From contig JBPOGA010000023.1 in NCBI GenBank assembly GCA_051252415.1, positions 1-60,216 of the forward strand: DNA of 60,216 nt, in the 5' to 3' direction. Below are positions 7,167 through 59,957 of this stretch, one piece after another. The notes beneath the pieces are model-generated. The model worked only from the letters and a program-made list of their open reading frames with translations. It did not search any database and was not told the origin of the DNA. Within the stretch, counting starts at the first letter, position 1. Each line of letters starts with the position of its first letter. This DNA comes from Opitutaceae bacterium (GTDB lineage Bacteria; Verrucomicrobiota; Verrucomicrobiia; Opitutales; Coraliomargaritaceae). Made by a program: the position numbers and the translations under genes.

Positions 7167-7246
7167 CCTTGCTTGATGCTTTAGGGGTCTCGGATAGTCA
7201 ACGGGTTTAAAGTATATTAAATCCGCATGCCTCGTCTACTTGATGC

Positions 7247-8803
7247 CTATTCAGTGTCGCGTTTTGCCTGGGCGCTTGAAGGTAAATCGCTGACTTCAAC
7301 CGTTTCACCTGTAGAATCTATTACAATACTGGATGCCTTGGCGGGTTTGTCTTCCTCGATTTGCTCGCTAGACTCCGCAGGTTCCACTGCCAGAGGGGTG
7401 CTTGTCTCTGTTTCATCAACTGCTATCTCCTCGGTGGCTGTGTTGGATTCAACTTTGTTCGATTCGGTGTCCTCGGATGTTTCACTAGGTTCAACGCCGT
7501 CTGATTCGATACCTTCCGGTTCTTGGCTGGATTCAGGAGCTTTCATCTCGGAGGCTTCACCTGCGACGTCCTCATTTGATGCTACCTTATCGGTAATGGC
7601 TGTGCTCATTGCGTCTTCTGTATCTTCAGTAGTTGTCGATAGATCTTCAGACTCAACTTCCGGCACTTCAACTGTATCGACTGTTTCCATAGTATCAACG
7701 TCTTCGTCAACTTCGATTCCTTCGACAGTATCGTCAAGTTCTGGAGCGGCTGCATCGACTGCATCATCGACCTCATCTGTCGGGAGTTCGGTGTCGCCTG
7801 TTGCTTCTTTTACATCATTCGAGAGATTGGAAAGTGCATCTTTGGTGGCTGATTCAATCATTTCCTCTGCTTCAGATACTTTTTCTGTGACGGTATCTTC
7901 CACAGCTTCTTTGACATCCTCGACTGTTGTTTCCACAGTTTCTTGGATGTCAGAAGTGATGGCTTCTGCGGTTTCGACAACCTCAGTGACGACTTCTTCG
8001 ACTGTTTCTGCAGCCTCACTCAGAGGGGTTTCTGCAGGAGCAGCGGGTGGCGTGTCATCAGCAGGTGCTTCAGGCGTTTGTGCCTGCTTTTGTTGTTCAA
8101 TATATACATATGCACCAGCACCGATTGCGATAATCAAGAGTAGGGGCACCACGAATACTCTCTTGAAGCCACTTTTTTTGACTGGAGAAAAATGCTCATC
8201 CAACGCTTCGCCATCCGTGACTTCGTCGCCTTCAATAAATGGGTTCAGTGTAGGGTCGACGGCAAGTTTGCTTGTATCTATGGACGCTTTTGGTTGTGGC
8301 GCGTCGTCATTGGCCATCTCAGGCTTATCAGTCATGTTCTGTGGGCTAGGGTTAACGGAATCTTCGCCGCCAGTCGAATCACTCGGTGCTTGGGCAGCTA
8401 CGGTAGGGTATGATTCCGGGTTTTTAACTTGGAAATCTGGATCCTCTGCATTCAGCGCCTCGTCGCTCATAAGTAGTCGTTTAAGGAGATGTTTCCCTAA
8501 GTCGTCATCTACAGATTGGATGTCTTTGGAAAATCCGATCACCTTCAGCTTGCGCATGATTTCGCTGTTGGTGTTTGGCTTATGGTGCTTTGGAGAGTGG
8601 AGGATCGTGTGCGTACAGATTGTAGGGGGCACGCCAAGTGCGTCGACGAGGTCAGAGACCGGCTGCAACTCACCGTCAAGGTTCGTCCAGTAAAAGTCTT
8701 TCATTAGCTCAAATTCATGCCATTCAACGATATGTTTCCAGTGATATGGGCCAGCTGGGGAACCGTCTTTTTTCTGGATCGTGAGTTTAATGCTAGAGGT
8801 CAT
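7247..8803 (-). CDS. Hypothetical membrane protein: N-terminal globular domain, one TM helix, long acidic low-complexity C-terminal region rich in E/D/T/V
   Basis: Proper N-terminus, a TM segment (RVFVVPLLLIIAIGAGAYVYI) and an acidic repetitive tail. The overlapping plus-strand ORF 7227-8693 is its S/T-rich antisense mirror. Confidence 0.5.
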   Translation of the reverse strand: MTSSIKLTIQKKDGSPAGPYHWKHIVEWHEFELMKDFYWTNLDGELQPVSDLVDALGVPPTICTHTILHSPKHHKPNTNSEIMRKLKVIGFSKDIQSVDDDLGKHLLKRLLMSDEALNAEDPDFQVKNPESYPTVAAQAPSDSTGGEDSVNPSPQNMTDKPEMANDDAPQPKASIDTSKLAVDPTLNPFIEGDEVTDGEALDEHFSPVKKSGFKRVFVVPLLLIIAIGAGAYVYIEQQKQAQTPEAPADDTPPAAPAETPLSEAAETVEEVVTEVVETAEAITSDIQETVETTVEDVKEAVEDTVTEKVSEAEEMIESATKDALSNLSNDVKEATGDTELPTDEVDDAVDAAAPELDDTVEGIEVDEDVDTMETVDTVEVPEVESEDLSTTTEDTEDAMSTAITDKVASNEDVAGEASEMKAPESSQEPEGIESDGVEPSETSEDTESNKVESNTATEEIAVDETETSTPLAVEPAESSEQIEEDKPAKASSIVIDSTGETVEVSDLPSSAQAKRDTE

Positions 8804-9013
8804 CTGTAAAGTGGGGCGGGGCCAATGATTTGAACCCTCGGCGGGGATAATTGCTTCGAAACTATATCTAAAAAGGCTTATTATCTGTTAGGCAAAGAGA
8901 AATTTGAGCCCTTTTTGTGAAACCTTCAAAAAAGTGCTCAAATTTCGGGTCGAGGGGCTTATTCATTGTCCGGCGTGAGAGGCCTGAGGATTGATTCAGC
9001 TGATGGCAGCCAT

Positions 9014-9784
9014 CTACTTAGCCCCTTGGTTATGCGGTTTGCGTGCGCAAATAAAAAATAAAGACCAATTCATTAGGCAGGCGTTTCTTTCTTCACGAAA
9101 GCCAATAGTTTGTTCGATTGCTTTAATCAATTCATCATCTGTCGGCGCGTGATCCATACAGAACAAAGTTCGGCAGTATTCTAGCATCTCAGCTCTCGTG
9201 TTAAACAGCCAAGGATACGCCTTCTCAACACCAGAGATTACTTCGAAGCCTACTTCATCCAATTGCACTAACTGGTTATTCGTTAAATATTTCCCATGGT
9301 GTCCCATCGAATTAAATTTTCCAACGACGCCGTCTAGAAATTTAGTAGTCATGGATTCTGTTTTAGCATCAGCAATCGCCAAAATGCCGCCAGGCTTGAG
9401 CAATCGATACCACTCTCTGAAAACGGCTACTTGGTCTTCTATATGGTGTAATCCTGCGAGGCTTAGAATGACGTCTGCCGTAGCATCGGGTAAGGGAATT
9501 GCGTCATGTTCAGCGCATAGTGTCTGATCCGCTTTTATATGGCTGCCCGCATGTAGGAAATTCGAAGCTGGATCGACAGAGATCAGTTGCGCAGCCATTG
9601 GTAAAAAGTCTGCGATGTAGCCACCACCAGAGGGTATATCCAGAATAACCGGATCAGTTTGATCGATACGTGCATGTTCAACGAGTGCCTGGAATTCTAA
9701 CTTTCTTGCATTCGGCCAGCGAACCATGGCCTTGTGATACATTTCGCCGCGTGTATCGTAAATGTCTGTATATTTATCATGCAT
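9014..9784 (-). CDS. Class I SAM-dependent methyltransferase
   Basis: Motif I VILDIPSGGGY. Motif post-I and II follow (LISVD...ADVILSLAGLHHIED) and LLKPGGILAI. Confidence 0.8.
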   Translation of the reverse strand: MHDKYTDIYDTRGEMYHKAMVRWPNARKLEFQALVEHARIDQTDPVILDIPSGGGYIADFLPMAAQLISVDPASNFLHAGSHIKADQTLCAEHDAIPLPDATADVILSLAGLHHIEDQVAVFREWYRLLKPGGILAIADAKTESMTTKFLDGVVGKFNSMGHHGKYLTNNQLVQLDEVGFEVISGVEKAYPWLFNTRAEMLEYCRTLFCMDHAPTDDELIKAIEQTIGFREERNACLMNWSLFFICARKPHNQGAK

Positions 9785-9854
9785 GTGATGTAGAATGATG
9801 CTATTTTACGGAATAACTCATCTTCTTTTACAGGGTGATCGATATAATCCAACT

Positions 9855-10745
9855 ATGAATACTCCGATTGTTTTTATCATCTATAACCGTCCTGATTTAA
9901 CGCTTCAGGTGTTTGAGATGATTCGTGCGCATCGGCCGAAATGTCTTTATGTGATTGGAGATGGGCCTAAGCCGAACTCTGCAGAAGATGCCAAGAACGT
10001 CGAACTAACTCGAGAAATCATAAAGCATGATTGGGATGGCTCAATTACACTGGATTATAGCGCTGAAAATCTTGGGTGCCAAAAACGAATTTTTTCAGGG
10101 CTAAGTTCGGTTTTTGAAAAGTATGAGCGCGCTATCATCCTTGAGGACGATTGTTTGCCACATAATGACTTTTTCGGTTTCTGTGAAGCTTACTTAGAAC
10201 TCTACGCAGATGATTCGAATGTGCGGCATATTACAGGGACTAATTTTTTAGCTGAAGGATTATTCAAGCATTCGCATGCGATGACTCAATATCCCACACC
10301 GTGGGGATGGGCTACTTGGCGGCGAGCATGGCAAGAGATGGACTTATCGATGGAATCTTTTTTGACTGATGAAGATGCTGTTCAGGAACGACTTAGGCTC
10401 TCGCGTCGTGCATGGAAGAAGCTAGTGAAGCGCTTGAAGAAAGTCCATACTGGTGAGGTGGACTCTTGGGCCTACCCTTGGTTGGCAACTTGTCTCGCAA
10501 AAAATGGATTGGTGGTAACGCCCAAACAGAATCTGGTATCTAATATTGGATTCGACAAGCGGAGCACGCATACATCAGACCCAAAGTCGTTTTTTGCGAA
10601 TAGAAGCACGAGCGCTTTTGAGTTTCCAATAGAGAAGGGGATTGATCCGAGCCTGGACTATAAAGTGAATCGTGCGCTCTTTGAGTTAATCTTCGGTGGA
10701 GGTTATCGTAAAAAAAACATCCTTAAGAAGTTACTTGGGAGATAG
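9855..10745 (+). CDS. Glycosyltransferase (nucleotide-diphospho-sugar transferase fold, GT2-like)
   Basis: Begins with the beta-strand IVFIIYNRPDL. Acidic EDDCLP (DXD-like) motif. Start taken at the internal Met (MNTPIVF). Confidence 0.6.
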   Translation: MNTPIVFIIYNRPDLTLQVFEMIRAHRPKCLYVIGDGPKPNSAEDAKNVELTREIIKHDWDGSITLDYSAENLGCQKRIFSGLSSVFEKYERAIILEDDCLPHNDFFGFCEAYLELYADDSNVRHITGTNFLAEGLFKHSHAMTQYPTPWGWATWRRAWQEMDLSMESFLTDEDAVQERLRLSRRAWKKLVKRLKKVHTGEVDSWAYPWLATCLAKNGLVVTPKQNLVSNIGFDKRSTHTSDPKSFFANRSTSAFEFPIEKGIDPSLDYKVNRALFELIFGGGYRKKNILKKLLGR

Positions 10746-11414
10746 TATTTTTGCTGGGATTGCCGTCTGTCTATTGAATAGAGATTCTGGTATCTTCAGC
10801 TGGTTCCATTTTTCAGGAAAGCGATTTTTAAAGGCGACTAGTTGAGCATGACGTGATTGCCATGAGACATAAGGACCGGACCAGCCTCGCCCCTGCTTAA
10901 CTGGGACATGTATGTATTTCAAAAAATCTTGTCTCGAATGTTGGATTAATCGGCCGAACCATCGTTCGAAAAGGCTTAGAGTCGCGGATTGGTTGATCGC
11001 TCGTATTTCAGGGTAAGTGCTATTTGCAGGTAGTGGCATAGATTTGGAGTCGAGCACCACGCCGTGGTCGCAGGTGTTCTCCATCCAGTGGAGGGTGGCG
11101 CCGCATTGATGCTTGTTGTGGATGAGTGGATACACATCGAATCCCACGCCGGGATAGGCTGGAAGCGCTGGATGTATATTAAGTGGAATGGTGATTCTGC
11201 GCAACGCGTGGGGTGGTAGGATGTAGTCGCTATAAACTGAAAATACGACATCCCAGTGTTGTTTCTCGTGCCATAATTCTTTGATCGTGTGCTTTCCCCA
11301 GCCTCGTTGCCAATAGATGACCCGTATGTCGTCGGATGTTTCATCCAGAATCGCTTCGATTCTGTCTTTTAATTGTGGGTCACAAATGACCAGTATTTTT
11401 AATGCACGATCCAT
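10731..11414 (-). CDS. Formyltransferase-family protein (Fmt/PurN-like N-terminal domain)
   Basis: Formyl-transferase core motif LNIHPALPAYPGVG. The N-terminus is Rossmann-like (KILVICD). It is the last gene of the AsnB-like operon. Confidence 0.7.
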   Translation of the reverse strand: MDRALKILVICDPQLKDRIEAILDETSDDIRVIYWQRGWGKHTIKELWHEKQHWDVVFSVYSDYILPPHALRRITIPLNIHPALPAYPGVGFDVYPLIHNKHQCGATLHWMENTCDHGVVLDSKSMPLPANSTYPEIRAINQSATLSLFERWFGRLIQHSRQDFLKYIHVPVKQGRGWSGPYVSWQSRHAQLVAFKNRFPEKWNQLKIPESLFNRQTAIPAKILSPK

Positions 11415-11439
11415 TCCTAGTTTTGGCCCATGGTCGCGC

Positions 11440-13242
11440 CTACTTTTGTCGATTCGCTAGCCAACAGATGCTGCCAATCAAGAGGCGTTGCGAATACACG
11501 CTGCGATCCACAGACTGAGTGGTTTCGTCGTCTTTATAGAAACTATCGATGTGCTTTTTGACTTTAGCTTTATTGAATACATCGGTGGCCGTTTCCAGTT
11601 GGCTAAGTGCTCGGTGCTTTGCTTCTTTCCAGCATGCGTCGCTGGTGTCTTTACTCGCTGATTTTTGTGATGAAAACTTCTTTCTAATCCGGAGACCAGA
11701 TCGCTCTAGTTTTTGTAGTTTTTTATAGTAGCGATTTCGGTTTGTATGGATGAGGGGGCGCGGCCTTGAGTTGACTGATGCGAAGGGGATCGCTGCGAGT
11801 TCTGGGCACATGGCCATGAATGTTTCGTTTTGTAATCTACGAAGTCTCATAAACTCTCCATTGATGCTTCGTATTGTTTCAGTCAGTGGCACGTCAAGTG
11901 CCGGTGAGACTGGCCAAAAATAAAATGCGTTTTTCCACATGAGTCGTCCATGGTGGGCGCGTGCTCGATAGCGAGCGATGGTATGCCAATGGCGTTCATT
12001 GGGATCTTGCGGAAAGGTGTTCCACTCGGAGCGGACTTCATTGAGCGCGGTATCAAGCGCTTCCGAGTAAGCTTTTTCATTGAGCAGGGCGGGCAATTCA
12101 TCGGGATTGATGCCGTAATGATGAATACATCGATCTTTGGAATCCTCATAAGTTCCGATCGATGCCTCTTTCTTTGCTGCACGAAATGGGGCATAGGTGA
12201 CATCTAAGTATAGCCCCGTTAGGCAGCGTGTGCCGCGAAGTGCTGATACGTGGTTCCATGAGTGCGATAGACCATTGAATCCTCCGCCGAGTGAAAATAG
12301 GTCTAACTCATCATCCAAGAGCTGCTGCGGAGATTCAGAAAAGTTACCCGAACATTCCCATGTGAGGTTCAGTTTTCGAGCGACCTTTCTAGCGTGAATA
12401 CTTTCATAGGATTCGCGGTTACCTAGTGTGACACATTTAGGACGCTGTTTCAGTTGCTGAGCGATGCTTAAAGTTTGGCGTGAGTCAAGCCCTCCAGAGA
12501 GCAGGCACGTGTCCACTGCCCGCCGAGTGTGACGTTTGACTGCTTTGTTTGTCGCTTCAATGGAGAGTTGTATAGCGTCATCGAAACTGTGTATACTTTT
12601 GACTGCGTTTTGTCCCGGGAAAAAGTGTTGTTCTACGTGAAGTCGATTCGATTTCGGTTCGTAACAAATTGATTCTGCGATGTTTAATCGGCTGCCTGTT
12701 ATTTCTACGGTCCGGTGACTGGCACAGCCGTTTTCTAGGATATGGCGACAGAACCCAACTGGATCGATAGACTGGTCATATTCAGGATGTGCATGGAGGG
12801 CCTTCAGTGAGGTGGCGACGCTTAAGGAACTTTTTCCATGGAAATAGTAGATTGGGAATAGGCCAAATGGATCGCTCCCAATATGAACCGATTCATCATC
12901 AAGAACGACGATCCACGCAAAGAAGCCACTGTAGCGTGATAGCTTTGCCGCCGTGGCTTCAACGTCTTGAGTCAGCATGTTGTAAAGTCTTTCGGCGCTG
13001 AGATAGTCGTCCATGTCGTCGGCTATGGCTTCACCGATGAGCAGCGCAAATCCATTTTGACTCGATTGGTATTCCTCGACGGGAGCATGGGTGGCGCAAT
13101 GCCACATTAATTTGCTGTTACGGCTTTCAACTTTTCCTCTGACGCCTTCAAAGCCTTTCGGGACGATGCACTCAGCACCATTACGGATCAGTAGACCAGT
13201 ATTCGCTTCGTTAGTGTTTGAGTGAAAAATGAAACTAGGCAT
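11440..13242 (-). CDS. Asparagine-synthetase-like adenylating enzyme, paralogue 1: PP-loop intact, N-terminal Cys nucleophile absent
   Basis: SGGLDS PP-loop (CLLSGGLDSRQTL). The N-terminal domain is homologous to the AsnB glutaminase domain (FFAWIVVLDDESVHIGSDPFGLFPIYYF) but begins MPSF..., with no Cys2. Confidence 0.85.
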   Translation of the reverse strand: MPSFIFHSNTNEANTGLLIRNGAECIVPKGFEGVRGKVESRNSKLMWHCATHAPVEEYQSSQNGFALLIGEAIADDMDDYLSAERLYNMLTQDVEATAAKLSRYSGFFAWIVVLDDESVHIGSDPFGLFPIYYFHGKSSLSVATSLKALHAHPEYDQSIDPVGFCRHILENGCASHRTVEITGSRLNIAESICYEPKSNRLHVEQHFFPGQNAVKSIHSFDDAIQLSIEATNKAVKRHTRRAVDTCLLSGGLDSRQTLSIAQQLKQRPKCVTLGNRESYESIHARKVARKLNLTWECSGNFSESPQQLLDDELDLFSLGGGFNGLSHSWNHVSALRGTRCLTGLYLDVTYAPFRAAKKEASIGTYEDSKDRCIHHYGINPDELPALLNEKAYSEALDTALNEVRSEWNTFPQDPNERHWHTIARYRARAHHGRLMWKNAFYFWPVSPALDVPLTETIRSINGEFMRLRRLQNETFMAMCPELAAIPFASVNSRPRPLIHTNRNRYYKKLQKLERSGLRIRKKFSSQKSASKDTSDACWKEAKHRALSQLETATDVFNKAKVKKHIDSFYKDDETTQSVDRSVYSQRLLIGSICWLANRQK

Positions 13243-13272
13243 ATGAGGTCGGAGGATTCCGTGTATGTATAG

Positions 13273-15069
13273 TTATTGGTTTGCGAGCCAACAGATGCTA
13301 CCAATGAGAAGCCTTTGGGAGTAGAGTTCACGGTTGATAGATCGAGAGGCGCGATCGCCTTTTTGGAAGCCATCGATGATCTTTTTTACTTTATCGATAT
13401 CATATATATCGGCTGCAGCATCTATATTTTTAAGTGCGTATTGCTTTGCTATATGCCAGCATGCGATGCTGGTGTTTCCGGGCTGTTTGTTGCTCTTTAA
13501 GTATTTTTTATTGAACCGGTAGAGACGTCTTTCGAACTTTTGTAATTTCGTAGCGTATTTGCTTCGTCTGGTTTGGATAAGTGGTTTGGGACGTCCTTCC
13601 ATAGATGCAAATGGAATTGTCGCTAGGTCTGGTCGTATTGCTATGAATGTTTCGTTCTGCAACTTTCTCGCTTGCATGAATCCTCCGTCGATACAGCGGA
13701 TGCTTTCGGTCAATGGCACATCCAGAGCTGGTATAATCGATTGAAAGTAGAATGCGTTTTTCCATGCAAGTCTTGCCACGTGAGAGCGCGCCCGGAAACG
13801 TGCAATTGTATGCCAGTGCCGTTCGTTGGGGTCTTCTGGGAATTGATTCCATTCACGACGCACTGTAGACAAAGCAGTTTCTAAGGATTCAGTTAATGGT
13901 TTTGTTTTCAATAGACCGTTCAATGAGTCTGGTAAGATTCCAAAATTATGAATGCAACGGTCTTTGGAGTCTTCGTAGCTCCCTGCGACTGTATTTGCTT
14001 CGGCCTTACGAAAGGGCGCATAAGTGACATCTAAGTAGAGTCCAGTGAGACATCGTGTGTTTTGAAGTGCTTTTATGTGTCCCCATGATTGTGACAAGCC
14101 GTTGAAACCTCCACCTAGTGAATACAAGTTAATTTCATCTTCCAGTAAGTTCTGTGAGGATTCGTAGAAACTTCCAGTGCATTGCCAGGGGAGTTGCAGT
14201 CTTCGTGCTACTTTTCTTGCGTTGATACATTCATAGCTGTCCCGATCGCCTACAGTGACGCAGTGCGGACGATAATCCAGTTTATGGGCAACACTTAAGA
14301 CATGGCGTGAATCTAGGCCTCCAGAAAGTAGGCAGGTGTCCACTCCATCTTTTGTGTGGCGCTTAACTGCTTTGCTTATCGCATCTGTAGATAGCTCTAT
14401 TGCTTCTTCGAAATTGTGGATGCGTTTGACTGCTTGTTCCCCTGGGAATTTGTGTTGTATTGTATCAATTGTATGAGTGGTCGGGGAGTAGTGAATCGAC
14501 TCTGCGATGTTTAATCGCTCTCCTGACTTTTCTAATGTGTGGGCTCCAGAGCAGCCGTTTTCGAGTAGGTAGCGGCAGAAGCCAACGGGATCTATAGATC
14601 TGTTGTATTCGGGATCTTTGTGTAGCGCTTTGAGTGATGTGGCGATGCTTAGCGAGTGTTTACTTTGGAAGTAATAGATCGGGAAAAATCCGAAGGGATC
14701 ACTGCCAATGTGAACCGATTCATCTTCAAGAACGACGATCCACGCAAAGAAGCCACTGAACTTAGAAAGTGTAGTAGCGGCATGGCTCTTATGTTGCGCT
14801 ACCATGTTGAAGAGAGTCTGCGCGCTCAGGTAATCATTAGAATCTGCATTAATAGCGTCGCCGATAAGCACTGCAAAGCCATGACCAGTTGACTGGTATA
14901 ATTCAAATGGAGTGTGGGCTCCAAGATGCCATCTCAAATTGCTGTTACGGCTTTCAACTTCCCCTCTGACGCCTTCAAAGTCTTTCGGGACGATGCATTC
15001 CGCACCATTACGGATCAGTAGATCAGCAGACGCTTCGTTAGTGTTTGAGTGGAAAATGAAACTAGGCAT
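13273..15069 (-). CDS. Asparagine-synthetase-like adenylating enzyme, paralogue 2
   Basis: N-terminus MPSFIFHSNTNEA is shared with paralogue 1. PP-loop CLLSGGLDSRHVL. The junction and RBS region are conserved with the neighbours. Confidence 0.85.
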   Translation of the reverse strand: MPSFIFHSNTNEASADLLIRNGAECIVPKDFEGVRGEVESRNSNLRWHLGAHTPFELYQSTGHGFAVLIGDAINADSNDYLSAQTLFNMVAQHKSHAATTLSKFSGFFAWIVVLEDESVHIGSDPFGFFPIYYFQSKHSLSIATSLKALHKDPEYNRSIDPVGFCRYLLENGCSGAHTLEKSGERLNIAESIHYSPTTHTIDTIQHKFPGEQAVKRIHNFEEAIELSTDAISKAVKRHTKDGVDTCLLSGGLDSRHVLSVAHKLDYRPHCVTVGDRDSYECINARKVARRLQLPWQCTGSFYESSQNLLEDEINLYSLGGGFNGLSQSWGHIKALQNTRCLTGLYLDVTYAPFRKAEANTVAGSYEDSKDRCIHNFGILPDSLNGLLKTKPLTESLETALSTVRREWNQFPEDPNERHWHTIARFRARSHVARLAWKNAFYFQSIIPALDVPLTESIRCIDGGFMQARKLQNETFIAIRPDLATIPFASMEGRPKPLIQTRRSKYATKLQKFERRLYRFNKKYLKSNKQPGNTSIACWHIAKQYALKNIDAAADIYDIDKVKKIIDGFQKGDRASRSINRELYSQRLLIGSICWLANQ

Positions 15070-15099
15070 ATGTGATTGGAGGATACCTTGTATGAATGG

Positions 15100-16890
15100 T
15101 TATTGGTTCGCTAGCCAATTAATGCCTGCGGAAAGAAGTCGTTGGCTGTATCTTTCTCGGTTTGATAAACCATCTTGTTTCTTGTCATTTGGATGGAAAA
15201 GAACCGTTTTTACTTTGTCGATATCGAAAATATTGGCGACTGTATCGAGTTGTTCGAATGCTCCTAATTGTGCGATTTTCCAACAATGAGTTCGAGAATT
15301 CTCTGCCTCCGATTTCGGCTTTAAATACGTCCTCTTGAATCTCGCGAAACGTCGTTCTAAGCGCTCCATTTTTTTGTAATATGGGGCAAGTTTTGTCGGT
15401 CTCAATGGGCGCGGTTTGGCACTTACGGATACCAGTGGAATTGCGGCTAATTCAGGGTCTAGAGCGATGAATGTTTGATTCTGTAGCTTACGATGGAACA
15501 TCAACTGCCCGTCGACGCTTCGAATTGCCTCAGTGAGTGGCACATCTAGTGCAGGGATCACGGGCCAGTTGTAAAACGCATTTTTCCATGTGATACCACC
15601 ATGATGAGCGCGTGCGCGGTAGCGGGCGATGGTTTGCCAGTGGCGTTCGATGGGATTTTCTGACAGCGCTTCCCATTCCGAGCGAACTTCCTCGATTGCT
15701 GCTTGAAAGCCATCTTTGTATGTGTCGGCAGTTAATATATCCTCTAAAACACTGGGAATTACACCGTAGCCGTGGATCCAGTAATCTTGTGCGAATTGAT
15801 AACTGCCAAATGACGGATCTTTGTCTACTGGGTCATTCGGGGCATAAGTTATATCCAAAAGGAGTCCGGTTAAGTAGCGGCTACATCGTATGGTTTCAAC
15901 CTCTTCCCATGACATCGGTGTGCTGTTAAAGCCGCCGCCGAGTGATAGGGTATTCATCTCGTCGTCCAGTAATTTTTGAGGCGGCACCGTGTTGTTTAAG
16001 ATGCACTCCCACGGTAGGCCGAGCTTTCGTGCGACTCGTCGTGCATTGATCGTTTCGTAAGTGTGGCGAATTCCTGTAGTCAGGCATATGGGGCGGTGCC
16101 CAAGCCTATGTGCGATGCTTAAAACGTGTCGCGAGTCGAGTCCGCCCGATAGCATGCAGGTGTCTATCGAGCGTTGTGTGTGGCGCTCAACTGCTTTGAT
16201 AGATGAATCAGCGGAAAGCTGAATGGCCTCGTTTGAATCATATACGGTTTTTTTAACGTTTTCACCAGGTAATGGATGCTGCGAATTTCTTAGTTTTCCT
16301 GACTTTGGATCGTAGCAAATGGATTCTGCGATGTTTAAGCGCTTTCCGGACTTTTCTAATGTCCGGTGACTTGAGCAGCCGTTTTCTAGAATGTAGCGAC
16401 AGAATCCAGCGGGATCCACAGACTTATCGTATTCGGGGTGTGCATGCAGGGCATTCAGTGAGGTGGCGATACCAAGTGAGTGCTTTCCATGAAAGTAATA
16501 AACTGGGAAAAACCCAAAAGGATCGCTCCCGCAGTAAACTGTTTCGTCATCTAGGATGACTATCCATGCAAAGAATCCGCTGAAGCGCGATAGTCTGACG
16601 GCAGAGTTGTTTTTGAGTCTAGACACCATTTCAAAGAGTTCGGAAGCAGTCAGGTAGTTGTCGGTGTCTTCAGCAATGGCTTCGCCAATGAGAAAAGCGT
16701 ATCCGTTATCATTAGATTTGTAGTGCTCAACAGGTGCGTGAGTGCCGTTACGCCATTTTAGATGGCTACATGCACTACGTAGTTCTCCGCGATTGCCCTC
16801 AAATCCGTCGGGCACAATGCACTGTGCATTGGCTCCTAGACTCTGGATTTCGTTTTTATCTCTACTTGTAAAAAAAGTGAAACTGGGCAT
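15100..16890 (-). CDS. Asparagine-synthetase-like adenylating enzyme, paralogue 3
   Basis: MPSFTFFTSRD...; PP-loop CMLSGGLDSRHVL; C-terminus ...RLLSAGINWLANQ, conserved with paralogues 1 and 2. Confidence 0.85.
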   Translation of the reverse strand: MPSFTFFTSRDKNEIQSLGANAQCIVPDGFEGNRGELRSACSHLKWRNGTHAPVEHYKSNDNGYAFLIGEAIAEDTDNYLTASELFEMVSRLKNNSAVRLSRFSGFFAWIVILDDETVYCGSDPFGFFPVYYFHGKHSLGIATSLNALHAHPEYDKSVDPAGFCRYILENGCSSHRTLEKSGKRLNIAESICYDPKSGKLRNSQHPLPGENVKKTVYDSNEAIQLSADSSIKAVERHTQRSIDTCMLSGGLDSRHVLSIAHRLGHRPICLTTGIRHTYETINARRVARKLGLPWECILNNTVPPQKLLDDEMNTLSLGGGFNSTPMSWEEVETIRCSRYLTGLLLDITYAPNDPVDKDPSFGSYQFAQDYWIHGYGVIPSVLEDILTADTYKDGFQAAIEEVRSEWEALSENPIERHWQTIARYRARAHHGGITWKNAFYNWPVIPALDVPLTEAIRSVDGQLMFHRKLQNQTFIALDPELAAIPLVSVSAKPRPLRPTKLAPYYKKMERLERRFARFKRTYLKPKSEAENSRTHCWKIAQLGAFEQLDTVANIFDIDKVKTVLFHPNDKKQDGLSNRERYSQRLLSAGINWLANQ

Positions 16891-16942
16891 GCGTGAGTAT
16901 TATAAGAATTGATCTACTCGGTAAAGCCCACTTACTTTTTTT

Positions 16943-18220
16943 ATGCAAAAAACACAGACTGGAATTTCTGTAGTCGATGGCTTCAAACTAATGGATGAGC
17001 GCTTCAATCAATTGAGCGGTGCGTCGAGCGGATTTGAGGCGTTAATTGGTAGCCAGTCTTATGCGTTGGATGACGCTGAACTTTCGGCAGCTGAATCGAG
17101 GTATGAGACTATTAAAGAGTTTCAGGTGTCTGCTATGAAACTGTTTAGGGCCAGCTTAGTCGGAGATGCGGATGCATCGATTGCTCAAGGCATCCTCTCA
17201 GACGTGCCGGAGAGTTACGGTTGGGAGTATCATAAGCATCTGCCCGATGCGGTTTGGAAGACACCGGTTTACTTTCGTACAGATGAAGCTCGGCTAGGCA
17301 AGTTGACCGAAGTTCAATGTTCTGGGTCTGGTTGGGATCTGGTCGAGACACTACGTGATTTCTATGGCGCATGTCCCCAGCACTATGGCGAACCTCAGCG
17401 CTTCAAACGTTCATTGGCTGACTTGTTTCAAGAGGCGACGAAGAACTATGTTGGGGCTCAGCCAGTGGTGCACCATTTGGCAGATAATGCGTCACGTCCA
17501 CACGGAGCGCGTTTCTTTATACAGAAAGTGCGTGAGCAGGGTGGCACGTTTTTCTCTTATGATGGCGGCGTGCGCCATTCGGATTGTAACTTTATCCGTA
17601 GCCACGATTGCTACAGTCTTTACCATCACAACTTCTTTGCCGACAGATTAGAGAGGTCCGAGCACGGCGAATGCTTCTTCGATTTGCCGCCGATTGCTTT
17701 GTATGATACAAAACTAATTATGGCATGGCCTTTCTGGAGCCGCACACGTGAGCATTTCTCCGATGAGGTGCGTGAGTTGTTCCCCTTTACCGCATTGATC
17801 GAAGCGGACGGAGTCGAGCTAGCTGATGGTAGGAAGGCCGATATTCAAACGATCATAGACATCGGAAATAATCAGCGGAATTACTTTGTTAAATATGCGG
17901 GCACCGATGTGGCGCGCAATTGGGGGAGTCGTGCCGTCTTCTCGTTGAGAGGCCTCAGTCGTGGGAAGTGTGAGGAGTTGTTGCGCACGATCACAGATGA
18001 AACGAGCAAAGGCCAACCATGGGTGCTTCAAGAGTCAGTGCACGAAAAGCAATCCGTCACCTTCTGGGAGCCAGGGACCGAAGAAGAGGGCTCCATGCAG
18101 GGCAACGGGAAGTGGAGCAGTTTCTATGGTCCTGAAGGGCTTATGGCGATGTTAGTCATGCACCTCGGCTCTCATAAAGTTCATGGTAGCGATAAGACTG
18201 TCATGAGCATTGTCTACTAA
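16943..18220 (+). CDS. Hypothetical protein of 425 aa, divergently transcribed from the AsnB-like operon; possible amidoligase partner
   Basis: Long ORF with a plausible start in the divergent promoter region and no confidently recognised motifs. A weak ATP-grasp-like C-terminal element (KGQPWVLQESV) is speculative. Confidence 0.45.
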   Translation: MQKTQTGISVVDGFKLMDERFNQLSGASSGFEALIGSQSYALDDAELSAAESRYETIKEFQVSAMKLFRASLVGDADASIAQGILSDVPESYGWEYHKHLPDAVWKTPVYFRTDEARLGKLTEVQCSGSGWDLVETLRDFYGACPQHYGEPQRFKRSLADLFQEATKNYVGAQPVVHHLADNASRPHGARFFIQKVREQGGTFFSYDGGVRHSDCNFIRSHDCYSLYHHNFFADRLERSEHGECFFDLPPIALYDTKLIMAWPFWSRTREHFSDEVRELFPFTALIEADGVELADGRKADIQTIIDIGNNQRNYFVKYAGTDVARNWGSRAVFSLRGLSRGKCEELLRTITDETSKGQPWVLQESVHEKQSVTFWEPGTEEEGSMQGNGKWSSFYGPEGLMAMLVMHLGSHKVHGSDKTVMSIVY

Positions 18221-18231
18221 GTGATTCTGGT

Positions 18232-19089
18232 ATGACTGAGATGACCCTACCTAGCGATACAAAGCTCCATATTCTCACTGCAGACGCTAGACAGTATCGA
18301 GAGTGCCATTTGCTGCATAAGCTCGCGGCGAATTGGGCCCAGCAGGGTGCGCAAATATCAACCGGGCCGTTGAATGAAATTCCGGAGGATTTGTCCGCGG
18401 TGATTTGTCATTGGGATAATACGAAGGTAGATCCGGCACTGTTTCCGGAGAATCCACATAACATCCCGCTTCTTAACGATCGTATACTCGATATTTCAAA
18501 GCGTTCGTTTTCATCATTTATCCTTACTCGGGATGATGTCTGGGAAGGCCCAGTAATTGTGAAGACCAATTTTAATTGCTTTGGTCAAGCAGAGCAGAAG
18601 AAAAAGAGGCGAACATGTATCCAGCGCCTTCAACGAAGGCTCTCGAAGCGAAATTGGAAGATGGCTCGATGCTTACCTCCATATAATTATCCGGTCTTGG
18701 ACGATAAATCAGAAGTGCCTAGCTGGGTGTGGGCGAATCCTAATTTGGTAGTTGAAAAGTTTTTGCCCGAACAAGAAGGGGAGCTTTATTGCATCCGGTT
18801 TTGGGTGTTCTTCGGCGAGCAAAGTTATTCCTACCGTTTGTGCTCGAATGAGCCAGTGGTGAAGAATCGAGAAGATGCTGTTCGCTTTGAATTCTTAGAG
18901 GCGGCCCCTCCGGAAGAGCTCGTGCGTTTTAGAGAAGCGCGTGGGCTTGATTTTGGAAAGATTGATTACGTGGAACATGAAGGGAAGGTTGTCGCGTTTG
19001 ATATCAATAAAACACCAACAGTAGCTTCTGATGCAGATGCGCCACATCTCCAGAAGCTAGCAGTCGGCATCGTTGATTTTCTTAAATGA
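18232..19089 (+). CDS. ATP-grasp-fold-like protein (putative carboxylate-amine ligase)
   Basis: Motif order typical of ATP-grasp enzymes: GPVIVKTNFNCFGQ (Lys/Gly-rich loop), LVVEKFLPEQEGELY, DYVEHEGKVVAFDINKTP (Mg-binding E/N region). Its start is 12 bp after the upstream gene. Confidence 0.5.
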   Translation: MTEMTLPSDTKLHILTADARQYRECHLLHKLAANWAQQGAQISTGPLNEIPEDLSAVICHWDNTKVDPALFPENPHNIPLLNDRILDISKRSFSSFILTRDDVWEGPVIVKTNFNCFGQAEQKKKRRTCIQRLQRRLSKRNWKMARCLPPYNYPVLDDKSEVPSWVWANPNLVVEKFLPEQEGELYCIRFWVFFGEQSYSYRLCSNEPVVKNREDAVRFEFLEAAPPEELVRFREARGLDFGKIDYVEHEGKVVAFDINKTPTVASDADAPHLQKLAVGIVDFLK

Positions 19090-19224
19090 TCGATCAAGGT
19101 TCGATGTGAGTCGCTATATAGAAAATGTGCCCGATTTTCTTTATGACGGTGATGCTGTGATATGAATTTTTAGATTATTTCAAACTTGTTTGCCGCGCGT
19201 GCTTTCATCGCTTTAACGTTGTGG

Positions 19225-20013
19225 ATGCTCACACTTCTTTCTCCTGCTAAGTCACTCGACTATCAATCACCGCTCCTGATCGGGCGGTCTACTCAGCCTC
19301 GTATGAAAGCAGACACCGCTGCGCTCATCGATCAGGTCAAAGACTTGTCCGCTCAAGAAATTGGAGGACTAATGAGCATCAGCAAAAAGCTGGCTTCGCT
19401 GAACCATGAGCGCTTTCAAAGTTTTGCTCCGTCCTTCACTAAGAAGAATAGCCGCCAAGCCATTTTAGCATTTGTTGGCGATGTTTACCAAGGCATGACG
19501 CTTGCCGACTGGTCGGCAGACGATTTTGCCGTGGCTCAAGATAAAGTGCGCATTTTGTCTGGTCTCTATGGTGTGCTCCGTCCACTCGACATGATACAAC
19601 CGTATCGCCTCGAAATGGGCACCGGATTCAAGAACGACCGAGGTAAAAACCTCTATCAATTCTGGGGCGACCGTATCACCGAATTGCTCAACGCCGATCT
19701 CAAAAAGTCGAAGTCCGATGTGGTGGTGAACTTGGCATCGAACGAATATTTTTCAGCCGTCAACACGTCCAAGCTCAACGGCACGTTAATCAGCCCAGTA
19801 TTCAAAGACGAAAAGAACGGGAAATATAAAATTATCTCATTCTACGCAAAAAAGGCCCGCGGGATGATGGCAGATTTCGTAGTGAAGAACGATTTAAAGC
19901 AAGCCAGCGAATTGCTGAAGTTCACCACAGGCGGCTACGCCTATGACCCTGACAGCTCGACCGAAGAAAAACCAGTCTTCCTCAGGTCAGAGGCTGCGGT
20001 CAGCTCCATATAA
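19225..20013 (+). CDS. yaaA: Peroxide stress protein YaaA (UPF0246/DUF328)
   Basis: N-terminus MLTLLSPAKSLDYQSPL matches the YaaA signature. Start chosen at the internal Met rather than the ORF-track start 19186. Confidence 0.85.
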   Translation: MLTLLSPAKSLDYQSPLLIGRSTQPRMKADTAALIDQVKDLSAQEIGGLMSISKKLASLNHERFQSFAPSFTKKNSRQAILAFVGDVYQGMTLADWSADDFAVAQDKVRILSGLYGVLRPLDMIQPYRLEMGTGFKNDRGKNLYQFWGDRITELLNADLKKSKSDVVVNLASNEYFSAVNTSKLNGTLISPVFKDEKNGKYKIISFYAKKARGMMADFVVKNDLKQASELLKFTTGGYAYDPDSSTEEKPVFLRSEAAVSSI

Positions 20014-27422: not shown

Positions 27423-27505
27423 CATGATCAGTGGGATTTGAACCCACAAGTCCTTGCGGACAACGGTTCCTTAAACCGACGCGTTTACCATTTCGCCATG
27501 ATCGT
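27423..27505 (-). tRNA. tRNA-like gene 1, type II (long variable arm, 3-bp D-stem), Leu-like: anticodon loop UUAAGGA gives a nominal AAG anticodon; C2-A71 mismatch
   Basis: Canonical T-arm GTGGG-TTCAAAT-CCCAC. D-loop AATGGTAAA. Variable hairpin GTCC-GCAA-GGAC. Acceptor ACGATCA/TGATCAT with one mismatch. Possibly a pseudogene. Confidence 0.55.
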
Positions 27506-27575
27506 TACTGTCCGGGAGTTGAACCCGGGACCAATGGAGTTACATCCATAGCTCTACCTTCTGAGCTAACAGTAT
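27504..27575 (-). tRNA. tRNA-like gene 2 with a 6-nt anticodon loop (stem ATGGA/TCCAT, loop TGTAAC), A1-A72 mismatch and discriminator C; identity unassigned
   Basis: Canonical D-arm TAGCTCAGAAGGTAGAGCT and T-arm CCGGG-TTCAACT-CCCGG. The anticodon loop is one nt short as read from the sequence. Confidence 0.45.
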
Positions 27576-27578
27576 CGG

Positions 27579-27651
27579 AGTAACTAGCTGGATTTGAACC
27601 AAGCTTCTTCTTGAATAACAAGACGCTCTGACCGGGCTGAGCTATAGTTAC
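27579..27651 (-). tRNA. tRNA-like gene 3 with a perfect 7-bp acceptor (GTAACTA/TAGTTAC) but a 5-nt anticodon loop (TCTTG-TTATT-CAAGA); identity unassigned
   Basis: Canonical D-arm TAGCTCAGCCCGGTCAGAGC and T-loop TTCAAAT. The anticodon arm is aberrant as read. Confidence 0.45.
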
Positions 27652-27750
27652 ATTGTGGATTCCGCTTAGAACGTCGAGCGGAACGCTGAACTCTAACAGG
27701 TGAAACCCGAGAGTGCCGCGCCGCCGACCGGAAGTGAGAGAATGTATGTG

Positions 27751-27889
27751 TAGGGGTTGTGCTTGTCTGAGATCATGAGCCTGTCGAATGGCGAAGACCG
27801 AGACAGGCTAAGGAGCTTAGGACTTTCGAAGGCTTCAAGTCGTTCTACCTTTTTGGCCATTGCCCGGTCCGCGCGAGCACGGCCCCTAC
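27751..27889 (+). repeat. Structured element family F4, copy 1 (139 bp), in a gap of the tRNA array: terminal 16-bp stem gtaggggttgtgcttg/cgagcacggcccctac with G-U wobbles on the plus strand
   Basis: Paralogue of 28231-28370. It shares tgtaggggYtKtgcttgtY..gatcatgagcYtgtcgaatggcgaagac....cggtccgcgcRagcacggcccctacg. Compensatory changes keep the stem. Internal hairpin gcctgtc/gacaggc. Confidence 0.75.
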
Positions 27890-27979
27890 GTTTTAATAAT
27901 CCTGCGGGAGAAGGAATTGCACCTTCTCTAGTGAAGTCAAAGTTCACGGTGCGTCTGTTACACTATCCCGCATGAAGGT

Positions 27980-28051
27980 TACCCGTAGCCAGAATCGAAC
28001 TGGCGTTTTCGCGTCGAAAGCGCGATGTCTTAACCACTTGACTATACGGGC
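27980..28051 (-). tRNA. tRNA-Glu (anticodon UUC), canonical
   Basis: GCCCGTA-TA-GTC-AAGTGGTTAA-GAC-A-TCGCG-CTTTCGA-CGCGA-AAAC-GCCAG-TTCGATT-CTGGC-TACGGGT-A. CCA is not encoded. Confidence 0.85.
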
Positions 28052-28056
28052 TAAAT

Positions 28057-28133
28057 TGGTCGCAGAGGTGGGATTTGCACCCACAGCTTCGGGCGTATGA
28101 GACCCGCGCTCTAACTGTTTGAGCTACTCTGCT
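28057..28133 (-). tRNA. tRNA-Met/Ile2 (anticodon CAU), non-canonical: D-loop AAACAGTTA lacks G18G19, T-loop TGCAAAT has G55, A1-G72 mismatch, CCA encoded
   Basis: AGCAGAG-TA-GCTC-AAACAGTTA-GAGC-G-CGGGT-CTCATAC-GCCCG-AAGCT-GTGGG-TGCAAAT-CCCAC-CTCTGCG-A-CCA. Confidence 0.7.
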
Positions 28134-28138
28134 TGAAA

Positions 28139-28214
28139 TGGTCGTAGAACTGGGACTTGCACCCAGACTCTCAGGCTTATCAAGCCCGTGCTTTGCTACT
28201 TAAGCTATTCTACT
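28139..28214 (-). tRNA. tRNA-Ile (anticodon GAU), non-canonical: D-loop AAGTAGCA without GG, T-loop TGCAAGT with G55, A1-G72 mismatch, CCA encoded
   Basis: AGTAGAA-TA-GCTT-AAGTAGCA-AAGC-A-CGGGC-TTGATAA-GCCTG-AGAGT-CTGGG-TGCAAGT-CCCAG-TTCTACG-A-CCA. Confidence 0.7.
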
Positions 28215-28230
28215 TAAATGGTCGTAATTT

Positions 28231-28370
28231 GTAGGGGCTTTGCTTGTTCCGGATCATGAGCTTGTCGAATGGCGAAGACGGTGACAGTTTTGAGGCAATT
28301 GGAGTTTCGATGGCATGTCGAACTCGGTTCGCTTTCTACATTCTGCGGTCCGCGCAAGCACGGCCCCTAC
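28231..28370 (+). repeat. Structured element family F4, copy 2 (140 bp), in the second gap of the tRNA array
   Basis: See 27751-27889. Terminal stem gtaggggctttgcttg/caagcacggcccctac. Confidence 0.75.
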
Positions 28371-28378
28371 GCTTAAAG

Positions 28379-28453
28379 TGGTGCCACATCATGGACTTGC
28401 ACCATGGCCTACCGGTTAAAAGCCGGCTGTTCTGCTTGTTGAACTAATGAGGC
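28379..28453 (-). tRNA. tRNA-Lys (anticodon UUU), non-canonical: D-loop AACAAGCA without GG, T-loop TGCAAGT with G55, U4-U69 mismatch, CCA encoded
   Basis: GCCTCAT-TA-GTTC-AACAAGCA-GAAC-A-GCCGG-CTTTTAA-CCGGT-AGGC-CATGG-TGCAAGT-CCATG-ATGTGGC-A-CCA. Confidence 0.7.
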
Positions 28454-28457
28454 AAAT

Positions 28458-28581
<124 letters not shown>

Positions 28582-28591
28582 ACATAGTGAT

Positions 28592-28667
28592 TGGTGGGAG
28601 CACATGGAATCGCACCATGACTTTCTGAACTTCAATCAGACGTGCAGACTATCTACACTATACTCCC
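28592..28667 (-). tRNA. tRNA-Phe (anticodon GAA), non-canonical: D-loop AGATAGTCT without GG, T-loop TGCGATT with G55, CCA encoded
   Basis: GGGAGTA-TA-GTGT-AGATAGTCT-GCAC-G-TCTGA-TTGAAGT-TCAGA-AAGT-CATGG-TGCGATT-CCATG-TGCTCCC-A-CCA. Confidence 0.7.
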
Positions 28668-28672
28668 TTAAA

Positions 28673-28804
28673 TGATCGCGGAGACAGGACTTGTTCCGAG
28701 GAACGTAGTGACGACAAGACCGGGCGCTTTGCGAACCGGAACACCGACTTTTTAAGAATAGCCGGTGTCCAAGACCGGAGCCTTACCAATTTGGCCACTC
28801 CACG
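28673..28804 (-). ncRNA. tRNA-like element B (about 132 nt), paralogue of A: acceptor CGTGGAG/CTCCGCG, D-arm GCC-AAATTGGTAA-GGC, anticodon-like arm CCGGU-CUUGGAC-ACCGG (UGG), 3' end ...A-UCA instead of CCA
   Basis: Same architecture as A, with compensatory base changes in the acceptor stem and inner hairpin. Confidence 0.5.
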
Positions 28805-28818
28805 TGATGATTGAAAAT

Positions 28819-28909
28819 TGGTGGACAGGGCAGGACTCAAACCTGCAAGGCAAAGAGATGCTCCGGGTTTACAATCCGGTGCCGCTATCAATTACGGCTC
28901 TACCTGTCC
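28819..28909 (-). tRNA. tRNA-Tyr (anticodon GUA), type II (91 nt with CCA), non-canonical: D-loop without GG, T-loop TTTGAGT with U56
   Basis: GGACAGG...CCGGA-TTGTAAA-CCCGG...variable hairpin GCA-TCTCTT-TGC...GCAGG-TTTGAGT-CCTGC-CCTGTCC-A-CCA. The D-arm register is irregular. Confidence 0.6.
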
Positions 28910-59698: not shown

Positions 59699-59772
<74 letters not shown>

Positions 59773-59779
59773 TCTTTTA

Positions 59780-59812
59780 AACCGTTTCAGTTTTGGCTGG
59801 AACGGTTTTTTT
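59780..59812 (+). terminator. Rho-independent terminator after tRNA-Cys
   Basis: aaccgtttcag...ctggaacggtt followed by a T-run. Confidence 0.65.
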
Positions 59813-59882
59813 AGATCTAATCTAAACCCAATCTTCTCTTGACTTGCTCCGTGCGAGTCTTTTTCTACGCTCTTTCTTTTTA

Positions 59883-59957
<75 letters not shown>

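Follow-up and report, generated by a model that had tools for sequence, protein, structure and literature searches.

The DNA analysed here is the contig of an Opitutaceae metagenome-assembled genome (MAG), a marine genome, and "the window" stands for its whole length of 60,216 bp. Within ~10 kb it carries five enzymes of the ATP-dependent carboxylate-amine ligase type, namely three AsnB-like paralogues and two ATP-grasp ligases, together with a formyltransferase-like gene (Table 1). An earlier note, made from the sequence alone, had proposed an amide-forming system of Cys-less AsnB-like enzymes and a formyltransferase at this site. Our analysis supports this core idea, and all open reading frames (ORFs) that the note listed are present where it placed them.

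On the minus strand the AsnB-like genes are transcribed in the order C, B, A, followed by the formyltransferase-like gene. The latter is convergent with the glycosyltransferase (GT)-like gene, and the 3' ends of the two overlap by 15 bp. The GT-like gene probably starts at 9855 rather than at 9795, since both the NCBI annotation and the orthologues point there. Promoter and terminator scans of the locus, including the 52-nt divergent region, remained at chance (shuffle) level, and an Rfam search of the locus found no riboswitch. The flanks of the window consist of housekeeping genes.

Table 1. Features of the locus and its conserved neighbour yaaA (SAM, S-adenosylmethionine; GSH, glutathione; paralogue types as in the neighbour-joining tree described in the text)
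Feature	Position	Strand	Evidence
Class I SAM-dependent methyltransferase, 256 aa	9014..9784	-	Methyltransf_11 E=5e-17
GT-A-type glycosyltransferase-like, 296 aa from likely start	9855..10745 (ORF opens 9795)	+	NCBI name, weak GNT-I
Formyltransferase-like, 227 aa, N-terminal catalytic domain only	10731..11414	-	Formyl_trans_N 30.3 bits
AsnB-like paralogue A, 600 aa, type 3	11440..13242	-	MPSF, SGGLDS, Asn_synthase + GATase_7
AsnB-like paralogue B, 598 aa, type 3	13273..15069	-	MPSF, SGGLDS, Asn_synthase + GATase_7
AsnB-like paralogue C, 596 aa, type 2, first gene of the operon	15100..16890	-	MPSF, SGGLDS, Asn_synthase + GATase_7
Divergent intergenic region, 52 nt, between AsnB-like and ATP-grasp operons	16891..16942	.	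sequence read directly
GspS/YgiC/Cp1B-like ATP-grasp acid-amine ligase (circularly permuted, eukaryotic-GSH-synthetase-type), 425 aa	16943..18220	+	
RimK/LysX/GshB-like ATP-grasp ligase, 285 aa	18232..19089	+	
YaaA, peroxide stress protein	19186..20013	+	H2O2_YaaD E=6e-87

The AsnB-like paralogues and their clade

All three paralogues keep the MPSF start, the PP-loop motif SGGLDS and a GFFAWIV..GSDPFG..PIYYF block, in agreement with their earlier description as Cys-less enzymes that retain the PP-loop. Paralogues A and B share 64% amino acid identity, A and C 55%, and both MPSF and SGGLDS are invariant in the family (13/13 members). The match to Asn_synthase amounts to 27-30 bits (cut-off 21), and GATase_7 is matched weakly as well. 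Class II amidotransferases need the Cys1 nucleophile, exposed after removal of Met, in order to use glutamine. In an alignment with six canonical AsnB proteins of the MCGI type, Cys1, the Arg of HRGPD, R49, N74 and D98 are all replaced (the last three in E. coli numbering). The HRGPD, HRRL, N(GE) and SD(xE) positions are replaced, and from NGE only the Gly and an acidic residue remain. Because Cys1 and the other glutaminase residues have been replaced, the N-terminal nucleophile (Ntn) glutaminase domain is degenerate, and the sequences predict that enzymes of this clade cannot hydrolyse or use glutamine. A catalytic function of the invariant Pro1 at the N-terminus was also weighed and rejected, as Ala takes its place in the wider clade; the conservation of Pro1 is more probably due to the burial of the N-terminal strand in the Ntn fold.

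Among the NCBIfam models the best match was TIGR01536 (AsnB), where the paralogues reached 45.3-56.1 bits against a cut-off of 267.1. Second came TIGR03104, the AsnO enzyme of the N-acetylglutaminylglutamine amide (NAGGN) system, with 40.1-49.9 bits against 570.1. The WbpS-type model TIGR03108 (eps_aminotran_1) gave 33.4-40.6 bits against 816.9, the lasso cyclase model NF033535 25.1-27.7 against 525 and the macrolactam cyclase model NF033561 11.7-18.7 against 300. Judged by these scores the paralogues are neither canonical AsnB enzymes nor WbpS-type uronamide amidotransferases, lasso cyclases or NAGGN AsnO enzymes, and the first part of the outcome which the earlier note had named as refuting its proposal, a place within ordinary AsnB or WbpS, did not occur. 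The sole sequence match in the PDB was beta-lactam synthetase (1jgt, E=0.016, residues 104-291). This enzyme is characterised by a catalytic Lys (K443) and a Tyr-Glu dyad; in an alignment by eye, the position that seems to correspond to K443 is an invariant Arg (R468) in the paralogue family. The analogy with lasso, peptide and beta-lactam systems that had been drawn before was not supported: the lasso and macrolactam models stayed at 12-28 bits against 300-525, beta-lactam synthetase was matched only at E=0.016, and no conserved small ORF was found.

A word-indexed search covering 5.8 billion clusters returned 15 relatives of the paralogues, all of them from Verrucomicrobia (Opitutae MAGs and Oceaniferula spumae), while an exhaustive profile search with a hidden Markov model (HMM) over 1.84 billion representatives returned 130 representatives of ~600 aa with E<1e-30. 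The wider clade, which comprises at least 130 clusters at 50% identity, is homologous to the window paralogues over their full length. Its N-termini almost always read MANF..DPD, the Coraliomargarita relative has MAGF and the subfamily of the window MPSF. Columns that are invariant clade-wide include the PP-loop S-G-G-x-D-x-R, G70, D124, P130, W436 and R468, and on the family profile canonical MCGI AsnB proteins score <50 bits versus ~120 bits or more for clade members. By sequence, the window paralogues represent a tiny MPSF subfamily of Verrucomicrobia within a distinct and uncurated clade of Cys-less AsnB-like proteins. A scan of genome contigs with the generic pattern C[LM]LSGGLDS gave, among the matches listed, only canonical MCGI AsnB loci, a result that says nothing on the distribution of the family in GTDB.

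The Cys-less clade is associated with polysaccharide loci. One member lies in an exosortase (EpsH/EpsI) exopolysaccharide (EPS) locus together with UDP-glucose dehydrogenase, canonical AsnB, GT2 and GT4 genes, and the same locus has two further AsnB-like genes and two ATPgrasp_ST genes. As a canonical AsnB with its Cys1 domain (GATase_6/GATase_7 plus Asn_synthase) stands there beside Cys-less members, the two kinds should have different roles. In addition, a metagenome scan with a 5-sequence alignment as query yielded 32 loci, whose neighbouring genes were analysed by ORF clustering and Pfam annotation. They include GT2 (9), polysaccharide pyruvyl transferase (6, and 1 more), Wzt with Wzt_C (6), Wzm (4), Wzx (3) and TylF methyltransferase (3), besides NDP-sugar epimerase, CMP-sugar cytidylyltransferase and FemAB-type GNAT genes. 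In 15/32 of the loci the MANF-type gene adjoins a gene for a ~400-aa PP-loop protein (SGGVDS, C-x2-C-x2-C) that belongs to no Pfam or NCBIfam family (for example L113:10703-11926) and is absent from the window. Its SGGVDS and C-x2-C-x2-C motifs resemble those of QueC, and it may be a second carboxylate-amidating partner.

The similar junctions between the paralogues had been taken as a sign of recent duplication. The duplication is instead old, with 55-64% amino acid identity, 68% DNA identity between A and B, and paralogue types that are shared with related Opitutales. A neighbour-joining tree with moderate bootstrap values (65-95%) distinguishes three paralogue types common to three Opitutales lineages, of which the window holds one type-2 copy (C), two type-3 copies (A and B) and no type 1. 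Paralogue A groups with the third-position paralogues of related loci, and the orthologues of paralogue C are those that stand second in the DCX06 and SRR6713914 loci (59-62% identity). The junction similarity is real only upstream of A and B, where the 30-nt spacers are 77% identical; what precedes C is the divergent promoter region. Over their first 150 nt A and B show 87% identity, compared with 59-77% in the remaining 150-nt windows (11440-15099, minus strand), which suggests local gene conversion between A and B or a constraint on the 5' region. The conserved ribosome-binding site that had been read at the junctions lies on the non-coding strand: the quoted GGAGGA is plus-strand sequence, the coding (minus) strand reads TCCTCC, and the coding-strand spacer, ...GGAATCCTCCGACCTCAT-ATG, has no Shine-Dalgarno sequence.

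Partner enzymes and conserved gene order

The formyltransferase-like gene ends the AsnB-like operon, as the earlier note had stated, and its product scores above the Formyl_trans_N cut-off of 26.1 bits. Among solved structures it comes closest to the sugar N-formyltransferases 7n7a and WlaRD (4lxq), at E~1e-7, with VioF and WbtJ (4nv1) next in line. The catalytic Asn-His-Asp is kept, with N-I-H and D aligning to WlaRD and 7n7a, and the protein appears to be a formyltransferase of the sugar type. It shares its domain and the aligned catalytic residues with WlaRD, VioF and WbtJ at a similarity of only ~30-35 bits. The setting differs from theirs, as there are no dTDP-sugar dehydratase or aminotransferase genes nearby, and the locus contains no NDP-sugar aminotransferase or dehydratase gene. 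The methyltransferase and the GT-like gene reported earlier are both present. The former matches Methyltransf_11, and the latter is named 'glycosyltransferase family 2 protein' by NCBI (an orthologue is called 'hemolytic protein HlpA-like') and shows a weak GNT-I match (E=0.014) over an IILEDD motif.

The 425-aa and 285-aa proteins of the divergent operon are both ATP-grasp ligases. The ATP-grasp-like character of the 285-aa protein had been recognised before, and the 425-aa protein, previously regarded as of unknown kind, is a ligase of this fold too. In the 285-aa protein the ATP-grasp fold comes with the conserved ATP-binding Lys and the Mg-binding acidic/Asn residues. Its nearest folds are RimK, LysX and GshB, and the ATP-grasp enzymes of peptides that are ribosomally synthesised and modified post-translationally (RiPPs) score lower. 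No Pfam or NCBIfam model matched it at E<=0.1, the RimK HMM included, and a PDB profile search was empty. The 425-aa protein has the GspS/YgiC fold; the GSP_synth Pfam HMM matches 0/49 members of its family, and a PDB profile search returned noise only. It differs from GspS, YgiC and Cp1B in its low identity (8-13%), in the missing GSP_synth match and in its partner enzymes. Neither protein has a Pfam match to ATPgrasp_ST or TupA, and tblastn searches with both against plasmids gave no match.

The families of both ligases are sizeable and unannotated, and the contigs listed for the one do not overlap with those listed for the other outside Opitutales. Because of this lack of co-occurrence we regard the two as accessory to the AsnB-like/formyltransferase core. 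In both contexts examined outside Opitutales the 285-family gene is followed by an overlapping gene for a ~400-aa LdmS_N-type ATP-grasp protein (L126:10001-12042 and L008:8001-10086). These two partners are 30% identical to each other, and the pair is a recurrent two-ligase module. One 285-family member is located inside a glycan locus with Wzy, GT, ATPgrasp_ST and TupA genes. The idea that the 425-aa protein is a diverged LdmS_N-type partner was rejected (hhalign probability 0.5%), and so was that of a universal 425/285 pair, since the 287-aa neighbour of the 425-homologue in Allocoleopsis franciscana does not belong to the 285 family. That homologue (L005:6858-13744) lies between an Amidohydro_2 gene and the unrelated 287-aa gene, after which come a GT4 gene and one that encodes a radical-SAM protein of large size; upstream there is a small ORF of 46 aa together with a radical SAM/FGE-sulfatase pair.

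The full set of genes is kept in three Opitutales lineages: yaaA, the 285-aa gene and the 425-aa gene diverge from three AsnB-like genes, which are followed by the formyltransferase-like and GT-like genes, with or without the methyltransferase gene. In both other Opitutales loci the GT-like orthologues are 70% identical and occupy the same position. The methyltransferase is 56% identical to the one encoded directly upstream of the Coraliomargarita AsnB-like gene and 33% identical to that of SRR6713914, and it is not present in the DCX06 locus. The nearest outgroup, Coraliomargarita (38% identity), has the order methyltransferase, AsnB-like, formyltransferase-like, GT2 (EpsD-like) and PS_pyruv_trans, its formyltransferase-like protein being 37% identical to that of the window. 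In 5/5 Verrucomicrobia loci that hold the cassette the formyltransferase-like gene comes last after the AsnB-like gene or genes. Such strict coupling, seen even in a locus of two genes, suggests that both enzymes act on one substrate and not on different sugars. In three Opitutales lineages the AsnB-like genes have stayed tightly co-linear with formyltransferase-like, GT and ATP-grasp genes, which argues for a dedicated pathway. In O. spumae, which has the two-gene locus, the genes downstream were considered as parts of the cassette and dismissed, as they encode unrelated coiled-coil membrane proteins. Away from its cassette, the DCX06 Opitutae MAG encodes one more MPSF-type paralogue, its fourth (L089:10001-11806), which stands alone without a formyltransferase-like partner and is flanked by RidA-family and tryptophan 2,3-dioxygenase genes.

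Proposed function and competing explanations

The best explanation that we can offer is that the locus is a cytoplasmic cassette for the amide tailoring of a sugar or glycan, a reading that we hold to be about as likely as not. A sugar or glycan seems a likelier substrate than a peptide because the clade is embedded in polysaccharide loci and the formyltransferase is sugar-type. In this scheme the PP-loop domain of each AsnB-like paralogue would adenylate a carboxylate (ATP to acyl-AMP and pyrophosphate), the most plausible candidate being the carboxylate of a sugar of the uronic-acid type, carried by a nucleotide- or lipid-linked intermediate. The acyl-AMP would then be coupled to free ammonia, an amino acid or another amine; ammonia derived from glutamine is not expected, since the glutaminase domain is degenerate. 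As three paralogue types have been maintained for a long time, we propose that they serve three different carboxylate/amine pairs. The two ATP-grasp ligases, working by acyl-phosphate chemistry, might make or extend an amino-acid or peptide substituent or synthesise the amine donor. The formyltransferase could cap a free amino group of an amino sugar or of a side chain, with formate from N10-formyl-tetrahydrofolate, and the methyltransferase and the GT-A enzyme may complete and transfer the decorated sugar. What we observed are the fold and domain identities, the loss of the glutaminase residues, the PP-loop, ATP-grasp and formyltransferase motifs, the gene order and the polysaccharide context of the clade; the uronic-acid substrate, the nature of the amine, the order of the steps and the fate of the product we infer.

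Several points weigh against a glycan role. The window has no genes for Wzx, Wzy or Wzm-Wzt, for an initiating transferase, a UDP-sugar dehydrogenase or a sugar aminotransferase. Identity between the subfamily of the window and the MANF clade, from which the context is taken, is only ~20-22%, and for that reason substrates may differ. The enzymes nearest in fold to the 425-aa protein, i.e. GspS, YgiC, Cp1B and GSH synthetases, have small molecules as substrates (PMC12568646). The 285-family gene of Hyphomonas and its ATP-grasp partner stand alone without glycan genes, and the O. spumae locus has only the AsnB-like and formyltransferase-like genes and no GT. It is the missing polymer genes, the ~20% identity to the clade and the small-molecule type of the ATP-grasp folds that keep our confidence in sugar/glycan tailoring at its even level.

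Uronic acids that bear amide-linked amino acids and amines are a common feature of O-antigens, capsules and exopolysaccharides. To our knowledge the enzymes that install them are known in few cases, namely the WbpS-type enzymes for plain uronamides and the ATP-grasp enzyme Cj1438 of Campylobacter. WbpS, WbqG and PGN_1234 are genetically required for the conversion of a hexuronic acid to its amide in glycans (PMC7468200, PMC6025236). Like the window paralogues they have the AsnB architecture of an Ntn-like N-domain and a PP-loop synthetase domain, and they are encoded in glycan loci, as is the wider clade of the window enzymes. However, the WbpS type is a curated family whose model the window paralogues miss, and the glutaminase residues are replaced in the latter. 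Compared with the polysaccharide loci of the WbpS type, the window locus offers only a GT and a sugar-type formyltransferase and no assembly or export genes. In the Campylobacter jejuni capsular polysaccharide the C-terminal TupA-like ATP-grasp domain of Cj1438 amidates glucuronate at its C6 carboxylate (PMC11800379). One 285-family gene has ATPgrasp_ST and TupA genes close by, and Cys-less AsnB-like genes have ATPgrasp_ST genes as neighbours. The window ATP-grasp proteins nevertheless differ from Cj1438, ATPgrasp_ST and TupA in being nearest to RimK/LysX/GshB (285 aa) and GspS/YgiC/Cp1B (425 aa). The Francisella O-antigen combines Qui4NFm, which is made by WbtJ, with GalNAcAN (PMC10924466), and ligases linked to a capping acyltransferase are a recognised theme (PMC4431377). 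The earlier note had allowed that the locus might turn out to be a known glycan-modification cluster. The polysaccharide setting of the wider clade fits this, whereas the locus, by its sequence, is not a known, characterised cluster, its enzymes falling below the thresholds of every characterised AsnB-type family. In the function that we infer, it would work like known glycan amidation of the AsnB and ATP-grasp types without the glutamine chemistry of WbpS.

The most serious competitor, which we consider possible though unlikely, is a pathway independent of nonribosomal peptide synthetases (NRPSs) whose product would be a soluble metabolite of peptide-like or glyco-peptide nature, for example a NAGGN-like osmolyte, a thiol conjugate resembling glutathione or glutathionylspermidine, or a small antibiotic. 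The ATP-grasp enzymes would build a di- or tripeptide, the AsnB-like enzymes would amidate or couple carboxylates, the formyltransferase would cap the N-terminus, and the methyltransferase and GT would finish the product. Such a pathway would suit the compact and self-contained locus without polymer assembly or export genes, and also the likeness of the 425-aa protein to Cp1B (E-64 pathway), YgiC, GspS and GSH synthetases and of the 285-aa protein to GshB, RimK and LysX. The pair of 285-family and LdmS_N-type ligases, alone in Hyphomonas, fits successive peptide ligations (PMC4431377), and yaaA and thioredoxin-like genes are conserved neighbours. TIGR03104 as second-best NCBIfam match points to NAGGN, but at 40-50 bits against a cut-off of 570; the NAGGN system moreover has the partner Ngg (GNAT plus ATP-grasp), and the window locus is without a GNAT. 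Against a soluble metabolite speak the association of the AsnB-like clade and of the nearest outgroup locus with polysaccharides, the sugar-type formyltransferase-like protein and the GT that is conserved in the cassette. Furthermore, no transporter, GNAT or peptidase like those in known systems for osmolytes or antibiotics is present, and the two ATP-grasp ligases seem accessory to the AsnB-like/formyltransferase core, given that their families are not found together outside Opitutales.

Beta-lactam synthetase, carbapenam synthetase and lasso cyclases combine a vestigial N-domain without Cys1 with an active PP-loop domain, which activates a carboxylate by adenylation and then joins it to an amine. 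The window paralogues resemble them in the Cys1-less N-domain and the PP-loop, with marginal sequence similarity. Modification of a RiPP or a protein encoded elsewhere, with the AsnB-like enzymes as lasso-type cyclases and the ATP-grasp enzymes as graspetide macrocyclases or RimK-type C-terminal ligases, could draw on this resemblance and on the weak matches to NF033535 and NF033561. We consider it improbable, as these models gave 12-28 bits against cut-offs of 300-525, RiPP ATP-grasps score below RimK, LysX and GshB, and the context of the clade is polysaccharide and not peptide. There is no leader peptidase (B protein), RiPP recognition element/PqqD or ABC exporter, and no transglutaminase-like or PqqD match was obtained among the proteins of the locus. 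Partner genes of beta-lactam, carbapenem and lasso systems (precursor, B protease, clavulanate and carbapenem enzymes) are likewise absent, and the setting of the clade is glycan-type. In line with the earlier note, which had seen no precursor-peptide ORF, our small-ORF search gave a single one of 32 aa (8868-8966) that is not conserved in related loci. The intergenic gaps measure 10-100 nt, and the 52-nt divergent region leaves no room for a precursor ORF. Least probable of all, and in our opinion very nearly negligible, is a chance cluster of ordinary metabolic enzymes, i.e. redundant ammonia-dependent asparagine synthetases or peptidoglycan/amino-acid amidotransferases. The NCBI label 'asparagine synthase-related protein' and the rank of TIGR01536 as best NCBIfam match would be consistent with it, but the scores are 45-56 bits against a cut-off of 267, and the family is extremely rare, with the 15 verrucomicrobial matches among 5.8 billion clusters.

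Returning to the tailoring of a sugar or glycan, a more far-reaching version that we hold to be doubtful would make the MANF/MPSF clade a new class of glutamine-independent carboxylate-amine ligases that attach amino acids or amines to sugar carboxylates by amide bonds. In the Opitutales cassette, three specialised paralogues, two recruited ATP-grasp ligases and the formyltransferase would jointly build an N-formyl-capped, multi-amide (peptide-like) sugar substituent. If this were true, the product might be a teichuronopeptide-like surface polymer or a soluble glyco-peptide (thiol, osmolyte). Independently of this version, the clade supplies candidate enzymes for attaching amines or amino acids to sugar carboxylates. 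Were the product a soluble metabolite instead, the locus would represent a new kind of assembly line without NRPSs. The two-gene version in the sequenced and named O. spumae, with one AsnB-like and one formyltransferase-like gene, may allow genetics.

Neighbouring genes

YaaA is a conserved neighbour and probably not a member of the pathway; its gene lies downstream of the 285-aa gene in 3/3 Opitutales loci. On the other side, a gene for a protein of 518 aa, very acidic and of low complexity with a single hydrophobic segment (7247-8803, minus strand), neighbours the cassette in 3/3 Opitutales loci. A 488-aa Ser-rich ORF on the opposite strand (7227-8693, plus) is most likely its antisense shadow. 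The largest ORF of the window, 2013 aa, is located at 30077-36118 on the minus strand. Ten tRNA genes are densely packed in ~1.7 kb at 27423-29106 (minus strand), and two more lie at 59699-59954 on the plus strand (Rfam matches of 43-70 bits).

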